Shown one piece after another: positions 12,636 to 46,866 of a stretch of DNA of 64,000 nt. This DNA comes from an uncultured delta proteobacterium (GTDB lineage Bacteria; Myxococcota_A; Polyangia; Fen-1088). Below the pieces are notes generated by a model. The model did not search any database, was not told where the DNA came from, and saw only the letters and a list, made by a program, of their open reading frames with translations. Both the position numbers and the translations under genes were made by a program. Within the stretch, counting starts at the first letter, position 1; each line of letters starts with the position of its first letter. Location of the stretch: NCBI GenBank assembly GCA_963737265.1, contig CAVTRY010000011.1:1152001-1216000 (forward strand), read 5' to 3'.

Positions 12636-13119
12636 CTTGGCATTGTATCGGAAGCGAGCTCGAAGTTGTTGCCAACAAATGAACCCGATCGGTCAGGTAG
12701 CTTTCTCGCCCGGTCGCGCCCGGTCGTGAATACCTCCTTCCTCACATCCCTCGGGGCATCGTCACTTGGCGCGCGGCTTACAGGTCCGGCTCTTCTTGTC
12801 GCAGCTCAGCCCGGGACAGCAGGACTTGTCCTCTCGGCAGCGGTGGCGCTTGGGCGCGCCGAAGATGAAGTCGTTGTCCTTCAACGCGACCGGCTCACGC
12901 ACTCCGCGGGCAATGGCCGCATGTCGAGGAAACCTCTCATGGTCGAGCGCCGCCTCGACGAACATGGGCAGTGTGCGTTCGCCAAGGTCACGACGCTGGC
13001 GCGCTCCGCGCCGATGTCGAAGCCAGCAGAGGCGGATTCGATCACGACATTGGCACCAAGCGAAGCCGATACCGTGGGCGCCACCGTCGCCGCCACTCGT
13101 ACGAGGCGGTCGGTTCCCT

Positions 13120-13460
13120 CGGCCGGGCCTTCGGCCACCCCGAAAGAATGGATCTGGCAGTGGGTCTTTCCCGCAACCCGCACGTACACCGATCTCGCAA
13201 GTCGGGAAGTTCGTCGCCACCACCTGCACGAATCCGTCATCCAGCGCGCCGTTCGCCGCGCCGCCGTGGCCGCGCGCATTCCCAAGCTGGTCAGCCCCCA
13301 CACCTAGTGTCATTCCTTCGCCACCCACCTGCTGGAAGACGGCTACGACATCCGCACCATTCAGGAGTTGCTAGGCCACAAAGACGTGGCCACGACCATG
13401 GTCTACACCCACGTCCTGAACCGCGGCGCTGGCGGAGTCCGAAGCCCTCTCGACCACTGA
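13120..13460 (+). pseudogene. intI: Integron integrase, C-terminal remnant
   Basis: IntI-specific insert EWIWQWVFPA..RRHHLHES, then [42 protein letters not shown]; TAG at 13305 and R-to-C in the RH motif; no N-terminus. Confidence 0.92.
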
Positions 13461-13599
13461 CAACGGGCGCAAAGAACGTGGCTCCCATATTTATCCGGCC
13501 GCCGCGCCGTTATTATCAGGCAGGCCGGCTGGTCGCCTCGCATGAAGCAGACGCATCCAAGTCCGCGAAATGACTGGAACGGCACCCCCGCTTTCAGCC

Positions 13600-13661
13600 A
13601 TCACGGCGTGCATCCAGCGTTGGGATATTGATTATTCTTCGTGGGATAATGGTAGTTCGAC
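13600..13661 (+). promoter_or_regulatory. Putative attI (crossover G/TTCGAC at 13655) overlapping a possible extended -10
   Basis: ATAATGGTAGTTCGACGG; GTTCGACGG is complementary to CCGTCGAAC at the end of cassette 1; TGgGATAAT at 13642-13650. Confidence 0.6.
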
Positions 13662-13712
13662 GGAGCGGATCTTTTGTGGAACTCCCTTCAACTAGCGTTG
13701 TCTGAGATTGCT

Positions 13713-14339
13713 ATGGAACCAACGAACTCGACGCCCGGAGCATCTATTCCCCGCCGCTCCTTGCTTGCATCGGTTTTCGCGTTCCTACCGTTCTTCGTCT
13801 TCCCTCGCTGGACTCAGGCGGCTCAGCCAGTCAACGGGCATTGGAGGAACTCTCAGGCCTACAGCACCTCGACATCAGCAGCACTTCGAGCGGTCGCGAA
13901 CGATAGGACCCTGGACCGGAAGGCACGGGTGCGTGCGATCTTCTCGCTGTTCGCGAGCTATGTCCGGCCGCCGGCAAACGGCGCAACGATGGCCGATATC
14001 ATGAGCCCAGCAACATGGCTGGTCGAATGCCGCTTGGACGGGGTCTACGCTCTTGGAGGCAAGATTCCCGTCGAGATGGGCATTACCGAGACGGCTTTCT
14101 GTCTTCGTCTCTTCCCAAACTTGGAGGGCTGGAGCGAGTGGGTCATCTACTTCACGTTGCCAGGCGGGCGAGGAAGGCCGGTTTCGGACGCTCGCGACTT
14201 TCTTGCTGGCAAGGTACCTGGAAGTCAGGAACTCCGGATGAACGAATTCGCCTTGTGTTTTCCTGCCGAAGGCAAGGCACGGATGGGGCGCACGGAACGA
14301 TTCACCGCGAGAGGCATTGGTGTCTACGGTCCGTGGTGA
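13713..14339 (+). CDS. Cassette 1: exported hypothetical protein (possible Tat signal)
   Basis: PRRSLL plus hydrophobic segment; ends just before an attC. Confidence 0.7.
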   Translation: MEPTNSTPGASIPRRSLLASVFAFLPFFVFPRWTQAAQPVNGHWRNSQAYSTSTSAALRAVANDRTLDRKARVRAIFSLFASYVRPPANGATMADIMSPATWLVECRLDGVYALGGKIPVEMGITETAFCLRLFPNLEGWSEWVIYFTLPGGRGRPVSDARDFLAGKVPGSQELRMNEFALCFPAEGKARMGRTERFTARGIGVYGPW

Positions 14340-14499
14340 GCGCGCCCGTCGAACAAGCCGTTGCAGCGCTCGTAGGCAGTGCAAGTAAAAAGAACAGGGA
14401 GTGATTCGGGTCGTCTGGGCACACGAGATCCGTTCCGCGGTCAGGAAGATGCGGTGGAAAGGATCAGGTGCGCGAAGAAGATTTGAGCGGGCGAGAGAT

Positions 14500-14870
14500 C
14501 GGGAGGCAATCGGCCTGGTAATCGAAACGCTCCAGTAGGATGTCCGCGAGGGCCGGCATCGAGTCAGCTTGCAACGGAGATTGGGTCAGGTCGATGGATC
14601 CTCAGGGTGCCTCGAAACAGACAGCGCTCTTGCACAAGGCAGAGATGAGCTTCAACAGGAGGTCACCCGTCGGATATCTCACACGTTCAAGGAATTGGTT
14701 TGCTTTGGTTGTTTGCTCCTTTTCTGCAAGTGGGTCTGACCAAGATGGACAGGGTCAGATCAAAAATCCTCAGGGTGCCTCAAGACAGACGGCGCTCTTG
14801 CACATGGCAGAGATACGCTGCAACAGAAGGTCACCCTTCGGAAATCTAGAATGTTCAACATGGGTCGTCC
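14500..14870 (-). ncRNA. Candidate bridge/seek RNA region with duplicated target-binding loops
   Basis: Direct repeats 14583-14690 and 14752-14858, each forming stem/internal loop/stem with attC-like loop strands. Confidence 0.65.
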
Positions 14871-14884
14871 CCATACCAGCATGG

Positions 14885-16153
14885 CTACACCGTCACCTGC
14901 AGACGGCGGGTGTCGAAGAGCTTGCTGCTATCAAAGGTGCCACCGCGACCGACGTGGTACAGCCCCTTGGCCAGCTTGCGCATCAGCGCGACGGCAGCTC
15001 GCGAGGCTCGGCCGCCGTCTCGTTGCTTTTTGCGCTGGTACCAGGCGTTGGCGATGGGATCATCCTGAATCCAGCGGAAGATGGCGAGCCAGAGTAGCTG
15101 GCGTACGCGGGATGGACCACGCTTGGTGATCTTGATCTGACCGTGCATGGTACCGCTGCTTTTCTCCTTGAGGTTGAGGCCCATGGCTTTGAGGAAAGCG
15201 CGTGTACACGAGTACGATCGTGCATCACCGACCTCGGCGAAGATGGCGGCAGCGGTGGTGCGGCCGACGACGGGGGCAAGCGCGGCGGCGGGCGTGGTGG
15301 CGGCGAGTTTTTCGACTTTCGTCTTGGCCGTGCTGAAGGCCCGGTGGGCGTCATAGGCCTCTTCGGCGATTACCATCAAAGCGTCGCGTTCAAGCCCGAC
15401 CATCGGGACGCCGACGGAGGTGCTGGCCGAGGCGACAACGGCAGCAACGTCGTCGTCGGCAATCAGCCTGTGACTGATACCACGAAGGAGCTTCGTCGCC
15501 TTGTCCGGGGCAGCGGCGACATCGGCAGGACCGCCGATACGCGCGACCAGCGCCATAAGCGATGCCGAGGTCAAATCAAGCAGGCTGGGCAACTCGGGCC
15601 AGTGGCGAGCGAGCCAGCTTTCCAAGCGATGCACGAGCTGCAGGTAGCGCTCCTGGTGCAGATCCATGATGGCCAGTGCTGCCTTGAGCTGCCGACGTTC
15701 TGGGACTTCGTCAGGCAGGCGGGTGGAAAGGCCGTCGGCGTGCAGCCTGGCGATGATGGCGGCAGCCTTGGCGTCGTGAAGACTGGGCACGCCGTCGAAG
15801 ATTTCCTTCGCATCGTGGGTGCGCTTGCCGCTGACCATGAAGATCGGAAAGCGGTCCTGTTCGAGCTGGTGGCGAAGCACATCGCCGTAGGTTCCGGAAG
15901 GCTCCATGACGGCTTCGACGATGATGCCGGCGGTGCGGTAGCCGCGCAGGATGGAGAGCACCGTGGGGTTCTGCTCTGGGGCCTTCCAAGAGATGGTGTG
16001 CAGCACACGCCCGTCGGCGCCAGCGAACGCTGCAACCATGTCGACCTTGGCGACGTCGATGGCGAGGACCAGCTTGCCGCCCAGGTCGGCGGGCGAGATG
16101 CTTTGTGGTTGAAAATCATTGACGGGCATTCTGCGATAGATACGCTTCTTCAT
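14885..16153 (-). CDS. IS110-family recombinase/transposase
   Basis: AIDVAK, MEPSG, HDAKAA; C-terminal GLNLKEKSSG..ITKRGPSRVRQLLW; GAAGGA RBS. Confidence 0.92.
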   Translation of the reverse strand: MKKRIYRRMPVNDFQPQSISPADLGGKLVLAIDVAKVDMVAAFAGADGRVLHTISWKAPEQNPTVLSILRGYRTAGIIVEAVMEPSGTYGDVLRHQLEQDRFPIFMVSGKRTHDAKEIFDGVPSLHDAKAAAIIARLHADGLSTRLPDEVPERRQLKAALAIMDLHQERYLQLVHRLESWLARHWPELPSLLDLTSASLMALVARIGGPADVAAAPDKATKLLRGISHRLIADDDVAAVVASASTSVGVPMVGLERDALMVIAEEAYDAHRAFSTAKTKVEKLAATTPAAALAPVVGRTTAAAIFAEVGDARSYSCTRAFLKAMGLNLKEKSSGTMHGQIKITKRGPSRVRQLLWLAIFRWIQDDPIANAWYQRKKQRDGGRASRAAVALMRKLAKGLYHVGRGGTFDSSKLFDTRRLQVTV

Positions 16154-16308
16154 GGGGATGACATCCTTCGTCATGGTTTCGGACTTCGGCACTTTTGGGA
16201 CGTCCCCGTTTCCATTTGCAACTACCTTTAGCTGACTGACGCAGTCGCCGCAGGGGAATTGGGGTAACATCAAAGAACCGCTCGTGCGGCGCCCGCGCCG
16301 CTGAACGG

Positions 16309-18194
16309 GTGCGCCCAGCATGGGCGTCGTCTTGGGGGTGCAAGTCCCCCCGAAAGGAGACCATCCCAAACGAAGCGAACTGCAACTGCGAAAGGGCGAC
16401 CAATCGTGGGGAGGAAGCAGGGAGCGAAACCGCGGGCTGATGAACAAAAACCGGATAAGAGGCGGCGCCGAGCGGGGCGAGTGGGCCCGTTGCCACAAAG
16501 CCTCGATGGTCAAAGCTCAGGCTACGTAGATCCGGCGGTCGTGCGGGGAAGGACGACGTACTTACCTGGGGAGATCTCGCCTTGTGCCTGAAAGGGCGAC
16601 GGCGCGGACGCGACGGGGCGAGAAGTCAGCAGAGGTCGTAGTAGCGAAGTCGAAGCCGGGGCGGCGATATCACCGACGCCGGAAGTCTTTGGCGATGCGA
16701 AGGACTGAACGAGAAGGAGAGCGAAACGAACATGCGTCTCGGAAGCAAACGGCCTCAGATGACCAGGCAACTGGAGCTAACGTTTTCAAATAGGGGTGAA
16801 ACCCCGACGGGAAAACGAAGCGAGGAAGCGCCGACGGCGACGTGTGAAAACGAGCGCTCGGGAGCGAGCGGCCTGATGGAGAGGGTGTGCGAACGCCCGA
16901 ACCTTTTGGCCGCGCTGAAGCGAGTGAGAAGGAACAAGGGCAGTCCCGGCATCGACGGGATGACGGTGGATGAATTGCCGATACACCTGCGCGAATACTG
17001 GCCACGGCTGCGCGAGGAACTGCTCGCGGGGACGTACCAGCCCGCGCTTGTGAAGGAGCAACTCATACCGAAGGCCAGCGGAGGAATGCGCAAGCTTGGC
17101 ATTCCGACGGTGGTCGACCGATTCATCCAGCAGGCTGTATTGCAGGTTCTGCAACCGATGTTCGACCCGGACTTCTCAAAGCACAGCCACGGTTTCCGGC
17201 CTGGGCACCGTGCGCACGACGCCATCGTCGAGGCGCAGGGGTATATCCAGGGCGGACGCAAGTGGGTGGTAGACGTGGACTTGGAGCAATTCTTTGACCG
17301 CGTGAACCACGACGTGCTGATGGGAAGACTGGCGAAACGCATCGGCGACCGTCGTTTGCTGGGGCTCATCCGGCGTTACCTCGGGGCCGGCATTATGGCT
17401 GGCGGGGTGGCGACGGAGCGGTACGAGGGAACGCCACAAGGCGGCCCCTTGTCACCGCTGCTAGCCAACGTGCTGCTCGACGAAGTGGACAAGGAGCTGG
17501 AGAAACGCGGGCACGCATTCTGCCGGTACGCTGATGACTGCAACGTATACCTTCGGTCGCGGCGTGCGGGCGAGCGTGTGATGGGGCTGCTACGGCGGCT
17601 CTACGCGGGACTGCGACTTCAAGTCAATGAAACGAAAAGCGCGGTGGGCTTGGCGTGGAACCGGAAAATCCTGGGTTACACATTCTGGGTAAACCGGGAA
17701 GGAACGGTGAAGCGCGCGGTGGCAGACAAAGCCCTTGCCACGATGAAGGACAAAGTCCGGAACATCACGAGGCGGACGGGCGGGCAAAGCATTGGCCAGG
17801 TCTGCAAACGGCTGGGGGAATATCTGCGTGGTTGGAAGGAATACTTCCGGCTCGCGGACACGCCTCGGGTCTTTGGCAACTTGGACAAATGGATTCGCCG
17901 TCGCCTACGGGCTCTCCACTTGAAACACTGGGGACAACAATCGACCGTCTATCGGGAACTGCGGGCTCGGGGGATGTCCCATGACGCAGCAAGCGTAGTG
18001 GCCGTGAACTGTCGCCGCTGGTGGAAAAACTCGGCTAGTATGATGAACGTGGCATTTCCCATTCGCTACTTTGACCAGTTGGGGGTACCCCGGCTGGCCA
18101 CGTAACCTCAACTTCCCGAACCGCCCGGTGCGGACCCGCACGCCGGGTGGTGTGGCAGGGGTCCTTGACGATCTGTCGAGGCCCCTATGCCGAT
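16309..18194 (+). mobile_element. Group IIC intron inserted in attC
   Basis: 5' GTGCGCCCAGCATGGGCG; short DV GAACCGCCCGGTGCGGACCCGCACGCCGGGTGGTG (CGC triad); 3' CCTATGCCGAT. Confidence 0.95.
16732..18105 (+). CDS. ltrA: Group II intron reverse transcriptase/maturase, no endonuclease domain
   Basis: RKLGIPTVVDR, GTPQGGPLSPLL, RYADD, domain X ending YFDQLGVPRL. Confidence 0.95.
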   Translation: MRLGSKRPQMTRQLELTFSNRGETPTGKRSEEAPTATCENERSGASGLMERVCERPNLLAALKRVRRNKGSPGIDGMTVDELPIHLREYWPRLREELLAGTYQPALVKEQLIPKASGGMRKLGIPTVVDRFIQQAVLQVLQPMFDPDFSKHSHGFRPGHRAHDAIVEAQGYIQGGRKWVVDVDLEQFFDRVNHDVLMGRLAKRIGDRRLLGLIRRYLGAGIMAGGVATERYEGTPQGGPLSPLLANVLLDEVDKELEKRGHAFCRYADDCNVYLRSRRAGERVMGLLRRLYAGLRLQVNETKSAVGLAWNRKILGYTFWVNREGTVKRAVADKALATMKDKVRNITRRTGGQSIGQVCKRLGEYLRGWKEYFRLADTPRVFGNLDKWIRRRLRALHLKHWGQQSTVYRELRARGMSHDAASVVAVNCRRWWKNSASMMNVAFPIRYFDQLGVPRLAT

Positions 18195-44705: not shown

Positions 44706-44831
44706 GTTCAACATGCCGTTGCAGCTCTCGTAGGCAGTGCAAGTAAAAAGAACAGGGAGTGATTCGGGTCGTCTGGGCACAGATGGTCGGCCGCGGACGG
44801 CCGCTCGCAGCTTAACGGCAAAGCGTTAGGC
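44706..44831 (+). other. attC carrying a ~56-bp IS110 end remnant (44726-44781), preceded by an IS91-like end remnant
   Basis: TAGCGGCTTGGTTCAAC..GTTGCAGC|TCTCGTAGGCAGTGCAAG..GGGCAC matches 14368 onward; right arm ends GTTAGGC. Confidence 0.85.
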
Positions 44832-45844: not shown

Positions 45845-46866
45845 CCCGACGTGCTACTATCCCCTTGGCCAGTTTGCGCATGAGCGCGACGGCCGCGCGC
45901 GGGGCGCGGCCACCGTCCCGCTGCCTTTTGCGCTGGTACCAGGCGTTGGCGATGGGGTCGGCCTGAATCCAGCGAAAGACGGCGAGCCACAGAAGCTGGC
46001 GCACGCGAGATGGGCCGCGCTTGGTGATCTTGATTTGGCCCTGCACGGTGCCGCTGCTCTTCTCCTTGAGGTTGAGGCCCATCGCCTTGAGGAAGGCGCG
46101 GGTGCCAGAGAACGACCTTGCATCGCCGACCTCGGCGAAGATCGCGGCGGCGGTGGTGTGGCCGACGACGGGCGCGAGAGCGGCGGCGGGCGTGGTGGCG
46201 GCGAGTTGGTCGACCTTAGTTTTGGCCGCGGCGAAGGCGCGATGTGCTCGATACCCCGTCGGCGATGGCCATCAAAGCGTCGCGTTCAAGGCCGACTAGC
46301 GGGACGCCGACGGATGTCCTGGCCGATGCGATGACGGCGGCGATCTTGTCGTCGGCAATGAGCCTGCGGCTGATACCAAGCAGAAGCTTGGTGGCCTGGT
46401 CCGGGGCAGCGGCGACAGCGGCTGGCCCGCCAATGCGCGCGAGCAGCGCCATGAGCGACGACGAGGTCAACTCGATCAGCGTGGGCAACTCAGGCCAGTG
46501 GCGAGCGAGCCAGCTTTCCAGGCGATGCACGAGCCGCAGATAGCGCTCCTGGTGCAGGTCCAAAATGGCGAGCGCTGCGTGGAGCTGGCGGCGTTCTGGA
46601 ACCTCGTCGGGCAGGCGGGTGGACAGGCCATCGGCGTGCAGCCTGGCGATGATGGCGGCAGCCTTGGCGTCGTGAAGACTGGGTACGCCGTCGAAGATTT
46701 CCTTGGCATCGTGGGTGCGCTTGCCGCTGACCATGAACACGGGGAATGCATACTCTTCGAGCTGGTGGCGAAGCACATCGCCGTAGGTGCCGGAAGGCTC
46801 CATCACGGTTTCGACGGTGATGCCAGCGGCGCGGAACCTGCGCCTTTTTCATCAACTACCTTTAGC
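45845..46866 (-). pseudogene. Degenerate second IS110 copy (deletions, frameshift)
   Basis: Closely similar to 14885..16153; same end CAACTACCTTTAGC abutting an attC right half. Confidence 0.9.

Follow-up and report, generated by a model that had tools for sequence, protein, structure and literature searches.

This study concerns a stretch of 64,000 nucleotides (nt) of DNA, hereafter the window, from an uncultured delta proteobacterium (Myxococcota_A; assembly GCA_963737265.1, contig CAVTRY010000011.1, positions 1,152,001 to 1,216,000), which contains one copy of what our comparisons identify as a divergent insertion sequence (IS) of the IS110 family that targets integron attC sites. A canonical bridge RNA carries a single target loop and a single donor loop. 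This element departs from that pattern, with two matches to one covariance model in each of its five copies in the genome, and comparison with relatives establishes the loops themselves, the register in which they read the insertion site, a separate donor-binding loop, variation in loop number, and selection on both target loops. An earlier note on the window had proposed that the element duplicated and reprogrammed its target loop and thereby widened the range of attC sites open to it. The paralogous loops, the host attC classes and the guide variation described below largely support this, and the transcription and use of the second loop are the parts of the proposal that we infer. We give a probability of roughly 0.6 to the view that the two loops each steer insertion to a different class of attC.

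Two paralogous loops and the register of their guides

The element has 516 nt of non-coding sequence downstream of its transposase gene (14369–14884), against 61 nt upstream (16175–16235), and the downstream region holds a direct repeat of 93 nt whose copies (14598–14690 and 14766–14858) are 85% identical. Alignment with blastn lengthens the repeat to 108 nt at 82.4% identity (14583–14690 versus 14752–14858), in agreement with the two ~108-nt repeats of ~80–85% identity described in the earlier note. On the minus strand, both copies can be folded into the same structure: an outer stem (GGGUGACCU/AGGCACCC), a large internal loop, and an inner stem (CUCUGC/GCAAGAG). A covariance model built from 21 modules matches both repeats over their full length, module A with 99.3 bits and module B with 96.6 bits, and both are present in each of the five copies of the element. 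Across the 21 modules, 95.5% of the cells of the proposed fold are paired, against 89.5% in shuffles, none of 500 of which reaches the observed value; five pairs have changed on both sides, and slid controls are 33–53% paired. Folding of the single sequences gives z-scores of −2.02 for module A and −0.09 for module B. Because it thus lends no support to module B, we relied on comparison. The fold proposed in the earlier note is therefore backed by the covariance model, the paired columns and the shuffles, whereas thermodynamics alone carries no signal for module B; the sequences of the loop strands read as they were first given.

The five copies in the genome (that of the window and four more) are 97.6–100% identical over ~1.89 kb and have different flanks. 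Empty attC sites in the same genome read R″-AAGCC-GTTG(C/A)AGC-TG(A/T)C(A/G)A.., and occupied sites read ..GTTGCAG-CG|CTCGTAGG .. CCTTTAGCTGA|CT-GAC... In the model of the ends that best accommodates both, the target in element orientation would consist of left target (LT)-(A)G-right target (RT) and the circle junction would read ..CCTACGAG-(C/A)G-TCAGCUAAAGG... Because occupied and empty sites fit this model, we place the body of the element and the two copies of the core as listed in Table 1. On the RT side, the flanks of the copies diverge up to 14366 and the empty attC sites of the genome share the RT part; on the LT side, the sequence differs among copies and the length alignment with empty attC sites fits. 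Two loci fit the model exactly: the occupied site of L015 set against the genome's empty attC at C17:104464 (target LT-AG-RT, donor ..CCTACGAG-(A/C)G-TCAGCT..), and L073, which lies in a long attC of a class seen empty in the window. The start of the left end, TCAGCT, is kept in close and distant relatives. Occupied and empty sites fit a 2-nt (A/C)G core, the sites compared not being alleles of one site. The position at 14367–14368 has C, A or G among copies of one element, and empty sites have AG; since the left junction carries AG and the right junction mostly CG, the crossover is not placeable to the nucleotide. All in-register junctions fall between L″ and the centre of attC, in a single orientation.

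Comparison with about 100 related elements identifies each repeat as a target-binding loop. The 10 nt that follow the outer stem (the 5′ guide strand) are the reverse complement of the core and the first 8 nt of the right flank, and the 11 nt that follow the inner stem (the 3′ guide strand) comprise 7 nt of left flank, the core, and UC, with which the left end also begins. In the window, module A matches core + right target at 9 of 10 positions with its 5′ strand and left target + core + 2 nt at 8 of 11 with its 3′ strand, the best scores for a complement of the target in the entire 516-nt non-coding region; the 5′ strand of module B comes second (7/10). This register replaces the 14-mer of the earlier note, whose match (12/14) had been to an occupied attC read as GTTGCAGC|TGACTG. 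Only GTTGCAGC (14360–14367) is attC; in TGACTG (16232–16237) the 2-nt core follows terminal bases of the left end of the element itself, and attC restarts at 16238. Correctly registered, the 3′ strand reads left target, core and a further 2 nt.

The register holds far beyond the window. Seventeen distant relatives (38–46% amino acid identity), with one module each, use it, and it gives 10/10 matches among them. In one group of these, guide GCGCGCCCCU, the exact complement of the 10 nt past the right end, stands opposite right flank AGGGGCGCGC, and in a second, reprogrammed group (L101–L103) guide GCUCGUUCCU stands opposite AGGAACGAGC in L101 and L103, with a partial match in L102. The 3′ strand of the distant relatives reads left flank + AG + TC, that is, ..GCUA-AG-UC at the left junction. 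Among close relatives, the guide variants GUUGCAG, GUUGAAG, GAUGAAG, GUUGCACCC and AUUGCAG adjoin matching sites; L074 matches at 10/10, and the first module of L021 tracks a GCAAT site. When sites were permuted among 41 elements, none of 5000 shuffles reached the observed mean best guide–site match of 8.32/10 (mean of shuffles, 7.82), a result that supports the register, although the elements are related and all of the shuffle tests therefore overstate significance. Covariation of guides with insertion sites, the check proposed in the earlier note, is thus found both in the distant relatives and against shuffles.

Two further observations concern the guides. In L003:2902–2983 (G000 C13), a 99%-identical copy, the 5′ guide of the first module carries a C→A change (GUUGAAGC) and the element nevertheless lies in a GCAAC site, which reflects either drift after insertion or a tolerated mismatch. 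Relatives of ~40% identity (L024–L027 and L095–L118, from Methylococcales and Nitrosomonas records) lie in attC-like sites on the opposite side, with R″ on the left flank; they carry a different guide, and the subgroup L101–L103 is reprogrammed to another right-hand target.

The number of target loops varies, as the count per element suggested in the earlier note now documents. The tabulation covers 59 related loci, 46 of them complete in that the end of the transposase gene and the donor loop are both present, and of these complete loci 36 have two target modules, 9 have one and a single locus (L021) has three, counts that omit, to the detriment of our case, any module missed by the search pattern. 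All 17 distant relatives have one. Where there is one module, it takes the place of B, ~130 nt ahead of the donor loop, and module A is therefore the added copy. The stems of both modules are highly conserved: in a model-based alignment, first (n = 27), second (n = 28) and single (n = 9) modules have stem entropies of 0.05, 0.06 and 0.00 bits, respectively, against 0.28–0.48 bits for the guide strands, in line with the earlier observation that core stems are conserved while guide strands differ. A global alignment of 26 two-module regions gives 1.05 bits for the spacer between the modules versus 0.29–0.31 for the stems. The same kind of constraint acts on both loops. Orthologues of A and of B remain distinguishable across relatives, and the two-module loci span ~80–93% transposase identity. 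Elements of a soil/peat Myxococcota clade have kept this combination of two target loops with a single donor loop. A scan of 151 genomes with the module model gave matches in only two, that of the window and another from its genus, and a search of positions 13000–18000 against Rfam returned only group II intron models and one chance-level match to a small RNA.

The spacer between the modules contains a motif, GAAAAGGAGC, which one-module relatives also have, ahead of their only module. The motif resembles a ribosome-binding site, and no start codon follows it.

The donor loop and the circle junction

Downstream of module B lies a candidate donor-binding loop. Its 5′ strand holds AGCUGACU (14562–14569), which with 8 contiguous bases is the top complement to the core and left end within the 516-nt region, and its 3′ strand holds CCUAC..GGAGCG (14528–14539). 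Within the non-coding region this stretch ranks with the better conserved ones, and its hairpin shows compensatory changes among relatives. The loop also changes together with the ends of the element. In distant relatives the left-donor side covaries, with a 3′ strand UAUGACAGG and a right end + core TATGAC-AG-G; L023 and L062 have GGAGAG with an AG junction, whereas the window has GGAGCG with CG; and in L078 a U→C change in the donor loop faces an A→G change in the left end. In L085 (690–790), an insertion of ~100 nt lies inside the donor-loop hairpin.

On the circle junction, the −35-like TTGCAC of the right end and the −10-like TAAAGG of the left end would stand 17 nt apart, and distant relatives share this spacing (TTGACT-17-TATAGT), which suggests a promoter split over the junction. 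Members of the IS1111 group have subterminal inverted repeats of 7–17 bp; here, an imperfect GTAG..TGCAA match between the two ends was read by eye.

One set of boundaries was rejected. Comparison of the copies alone had placed the element at 14352–16241 with a GCT core, and these limits are contradicted both by the empty attC sites, in which AAGCC-GTTGCAGC is attC, and by the retention of the TCAGCT left end in relatives with other targets.

Table 1. Features of the element and of the attC site that it interrupts (window coordinates)
Feature	Position	Strand	Details
Interrupted attC, 5′ part (RT in element orientation)	14348–14366	+	R″ box 14348–14354; spacer 14355–14359; L″ box bases 14360–14366
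Core dinucleotide, right junction	14367–14368	.	CG in element orientation
IS110-family element, body	14369–16235	-	1867 bp; ends set by comparison of occupied and empty attC
Right end	14369–14384	-	Final 10 nt 14369–14378; −35-like TTGCAC 14379–14384
Candidate donor-binding loop	14524–14579	-	5′ strand, hairpin, 3′ strand; downstream of module B
Module B, putative second target-binding loop	14597–14678	-	5′ guide strand 14648–14657; 3′ guide strand 14616–14626
GAAAAGGAGC motif	14715–14724	-	Spacer between modules; kept in nine of nine aligned relatives, including one-module L023
Module A, putative first target-binding loop	14765–14846	-	5′ guide strand 14816–14825; 3′ guide strand 14784–14794
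Transposase/recombinase gene	14885–16174	-	429 amino acids
Left end	16225–16235	-	TCAGCUAAAGG in element orientation; holds −10-like TAAAGG 16225–16230
Core dinucleotide, left junction	16236–16237	.	AG in element orientation
Remaining attC, first bases (LT in element orientation)	16238–16247	+

Host attC classes and the proposed role of loop B

The attC sites of the host fall into sequence classes. Sixteen sites have GTTGCAGC as their L″ box and five have GTTGAAGC, the L′ box is GCTGAAC in 10 and GCTTAAC in 7, and the L′ and L″ boxes of the two classes change in compensating fashion. The earlier note had stated that GTTGAAGC does not occur among the attC sites of the window; it is missing from the attC sites found on the window's contig, and the five sites of this class lie elsewhere in the genome. 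The guides of module A predict the GTTGCAGC class and those of module B the GTTGAAGC class, and the right-end sequence of this IS family is found in sites of both classes, including two of the five GTTGAAGC sites.

In the model that we favor, the non-coding 3′ region would encode three guide modules on the transposase strand: target loops A and B, followed by the donor loop. The 5′ strand of a target loop would pair with the top strand of the core and right target (the L″ box of attC), while the 3′ strand, which has the sequence of the left target and core, would pair with the bottom strand; the donor loop would do likewise for the joined ends of the excised circle. Either target loop could partner the single donor loop, because in the IS621 complex, according to the text of the structural study (PMC11208158), one bridge RNA molecule supplies the target loop and another the donor loop, and in vitro assays were made with the loops separated. 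Loop A would be set for attC sites with L″ = GTTGCAGC (target ..GTC-AG-CTGCAACGG..) and loop B for the structurally compensated class GTTGAAGC (target ..GTC-AG-CTTCAACGG..), and the duplication would thus widen the range of attC sites that the element can enter. Both loops are, on this model, presumably transcribed, bound and used.

The model can be examined in the sites that two-module elements actually occupy. Of 39 element–site pairs, 34 were scored, the out-of-register junctions of L014, L020, L029, L044 and L111 having been dropped before counting, a choice that counts against the model; the 34 are also partly dependent, since four are copies in the host genome and L053 may be the same locus as L087. 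In 19 of the 34 pairs, the guide of A is of the GCAAC type and that of B of the TCAAC type; 16 of these sites are GCAAC and three are TCAAC or TCATC. The latter belong to L049, L085 and L112, and loop B is the better fit in all three. When the ambiguous first core base is left out, A fits better in 22 of the 34 pairs, B in 5 (L043, L049, L050, L085 and L112), and 7 are ties, the margin in favor of B being clear only for L049 (7 versus 5 of 9) and L112 (9 versus 6). Some second modules, for example those of L112 and L065, spell the GTTGAAGC class on both arms.

A number of observations weigh against the model. Loop A alone appears to account for most of the sampled insertions, as the 22 better fits and 7 ties indicate. 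The guides of A and B differ at just 1–4 of 10 positions, and the left-target arm separates the modules poorly. One-base mismatches are tolerated (L071 and L003 lie in GCAAC sites without a GCAAC guide), and weak preferences therefore say little. The match of the last module to its sites is barely above that of shuffles, 178 of 5000 of which are as high, and the minimum-energy fold of the 346-nt context keeps module A and loses module B (z +0.15). The 5′ guide of loop B is near-constant (CTTCAAC type in 25 of 32 multi-module elements), which could stem from a constraint other than targeting. On the donor side, the left-donor arm of the window's donor loop matches at only 6 of 9 positions without a 2-nt bulge, and some relatives have an uncompensated base facing the core or right donor. 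Six metatranscriptome runs hold 10–13% of the sampled words of the query, and in four runs (likeness of at least 85%) contigs of relatives fill 30 of 30 bins and include both modules and the donor loop, one such contig omitting 14691–14909, as expected of a one-module relative. These contigs come from RNA libraries, which cannot show transcription, ends or strand, and they are therefore evidence neither for nor against expression.

Several of these points would also follow if loop B were functional without selecting targets, serving instead in folding, processing, recombinase loading or excision or as a decoy, with A targeting alone. This alternative, which we regard as unlikely yet deserving of serious attention, is consistent with the better or equal fit of loop A in 29 of 34 pairs and with the near-invariant guide of B, and it derives further support from the position of B, which is the ancestral one beside the donor loop, and from the fact that selection on the stems is explicable by any RNA function. 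The one-module relatives argue otherwise, in that the module at their B position is a target loop: L074 matches its site at 10/10, and the single module of L075 matches the right target at 9/10 and the left target at 9/9. Moreover, the guide strands of B vary in the same columns as those of A; guide pairs of B, such as 5′ CGUUGAAGCG with 3′ CGUCGAC-AG, spell a real attC class with both arms; and L049 and L112 occupy sites to which loop A is a poor fit (5 and 6 of 9).

It is improbable that loop B, or loop A, is a neutral leftover of a tandem duplication of non-coding sequence on its way to decay. Tandem duplications are reported for IS110 loci in the available text of a recent preprint (10.64898/2026.08.14.744561), the guide mutation of L003 no longer matches the site of that element, and L018 has lost the 5′ flank of its second module, points that speak for such a leftover. 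A leftover would not be expected in 36 of 46 complete loci at ~80–93% transposase identity, nor would its stems be held at 0.05–0.06 bits at both positions against 1.05 for the spacer or its A and B orthologues be still distinguishable across relatives.

A quite improbable extension of the favored model is that the recombinase might load loops A and B together, instead of a target and a donor loop, and so recombine two attC sites; this could permit RNA-guided deletion, inversion or shuffling of cassettes without an integron integrase, with the solo right-end remnants (~70 nt) found in attC as by-products. Least credible is the suggestion, raised in the earlier note as a possible objection, that loop B is itself the donor-binding loop and looks target-like because donor resembles target: although the left end TCAGCT mimics the target TC-AG-CT around the core and the 3′ strands of both modules hold GAGCGC, like the right end GAGCG (6/9), module B read by eye in the module register matches the donor at only 3/10 (core + right donor) and 2/7 (left donor), the ends are almost invariant among relatives while the strands of B vary, and a separate conserved loop that lies downstream, is kept in one-module elements and covaries with the ends provides the best donor complement (14562–14569), so that repeat B is very improbable as the donor loop.

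Family placement, known systems and neighboring elements

The transposase of the element matches PF02371, the C-terminal transposase domain, with 54.3 bits (cutoff, 21.3) over residues 301–380. Its match to PF01548, the N-terminal DEDD RuvC-like domain, falls below the cutoff (E = 4.6e-6; 26.9 bits versus 29), and precomputed PF01548 matches exist in its relatives. The IS110 model NF033542 of NCBIfam scores 112.2 bits, under its cutoff of 140, and similarity to the solved transposases of IS621 and ISCro4 is confined to the C-terminal 120 amino acids (E ~1e-3; IS621, 2e-3). At E ≤ 1e-10 there are 1352 homologues among 8000 scored candidates, all of them named just "transposase" or without a name. 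The element thus appears to belong to a deep, previously unnamed branch of the IS110 family, to which a guide code can now be added. The earlier note had mentioned that an IS1111 subgroup targets attC. The element is not a typical IS1111, its protein having 429 rather than 330–350 amino acids and family scores below threshold. In a tblastn search of 72,556 plasmid records, none covered at least 80% of the transposase, the best reaching 39% identity over 26%. Members of the IS1111-attC group (ISPa21, ISKpn4, ISPst6 and ISPa25) presumably occur in the plasmid collection searched. The attC-targeting IS1111 elements are reportedly treated by Post and Hall in 2009 and by Tetu and Holmes in 2008. 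Like members of this group, which have a fixed position and orientation of their own in attC, the element has its in-register junctions at one position and in one orientation.

The element shares its general plan with the bridge RNA system of IS621 and IS110, as set out in the text of two studies (Durrant et al. 2024, PMC11208160; Hiraizumi et al. 2024, PMC11208158): a DEDD/Tnp recombinase acts with a non-coding RNA, internal loops of which read the two strands of target and donor on either side of a 2-nt core, the promoter is split across the circle junction (as we suggest here), and the target and donor loops are separable modules. It differs from the IS621 of those descriptions in that its RNA would lie downstream of the gene, that there are two target loops per donor loop (one to three in relatives) rather than one, that the core is (A/C)G rather than CT, and that the order of the loop strands is reversed, with the top-strand match 5′, as reported for IS1111-type seekRNAs. 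The recombinase differs as well, its similarity to that of IS621 being limited to the C-terminal 120 of 429 amino acids.

With the IS1111 elements ISKpn4, ISPst6 and ISPa25, as described in the text of Siddiquee et al. (2024, PMC11187229), it has in common a target at one end of attC, a long non-coding region downstream of the transposase gene, and short RNA segments, of which those matching the target's top strand precede those matching its bottom strand. In the same text, without its figures and supplements, a longer RNA of ~150 nt and a shorter one of ~80 nt are reported, the transposases have 330–350 amino acids in contrast to the 429 found here, and one target-matching module is described, with no mention of a duplicated one. 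Many IS1111 RNAs place their donor-binding bases in a multi-loop, according to the text of PMC11208160.

Tandem units are also known from expanded IS110 loci, in which, as far as the text of a preprint goes (10.64898/2026.08.14.744561), non-coding repeats at least 95% identical adjoin the transposase gene and one locus has several predicted donor loops. Those loci share with ours the duplicated non-coding units beside the transposase. Their multiple loops, however, are donor-binding and tied to partial circles, whereas those of the window would be target loops, and the window's repeats are old (82–85%), differ mainly in their guide strands, and occur clade-wide. The guide arrays of CRISPR and TIGR offer an analogy only, in that a conserved repeat scaffold and variable guide segments stand in tandem; here there are one to three units, no spacer-acquisition machinery, and guides that would serve the element's own insertion and not defense. 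In the text of the literature on bridge RNAs, target-binding loops and attC, figures and supplements not being covered, we found no natural element with several differently programmed target loops, and the "two bridge RNAs" mentioned there are two engineered RNAs per site.

If our model is correct, evolution has already multiplexed the bridge/seekRNA system by placing two (in relatives, one to three) differently programmed target loops beside one donor loop. It would show an RNA-guided transposon coping with a target that the integrase, the target's own enzyme, recognizes by shape and not by sequence, and whose sequence classes differ by mutually compensating changes in the L′ and L″ boxes that pair. 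A design rule for engineering would follow, in which several target loops share one donor loop on one transcript. Apart from this model, attC sites are seen here to be hit side by side by two kinds of RNA-dependent mobile elements, an IS and a group II intron.

That intron occupies 16390–18105, in the 3′ half of the same attC and ~150 nt from the left end of the IS. It is matched by RF02001 at 16390–16561 (100.6 bits) and weakly by RF01998, and an open reading frame for a reverse transcriptase/maturase extends over 16732–18105. Since the IS and the intron share it, one attC carries two different RNA-dependent mobile elements; a 96%-identical copy of the intron lies beside another IS copy (L002). 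On the other side of the element, the C-terminal fragment of a tyrosine recombinase (13311–13457, plus strand; PF00589, E = 4.8e-13), with an in-frame TAG ahead of it, probably represents a disrupted integron integrase, and a cassette open reading frame on the same strand (13674–14339) has no Pfam match.

Remnants of the IS family are found at several places. Solo right ends of ~55–70 nt lie within attC at ~44726–44785 of the window and at C7:295621 and C7:296253 of G000, where they run straight into the rest of the site, one of them in a site of the GTTGAAGC class; they may have arisen by deletion or abortive recombination or may represent a miniature element. A second transposase fragment (45846–46843), 86% identical in DNA to 14949–15947 and with no match to the module covariance model nearby, is probably a decayed relative. 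In L007/L005 (G000 C17:109198–112275), a copy of the IS is interrupted near the 3′ end of its transposase gene by other DNA (~1.37 kb), and a repeat of ~13 bp marks the joint.

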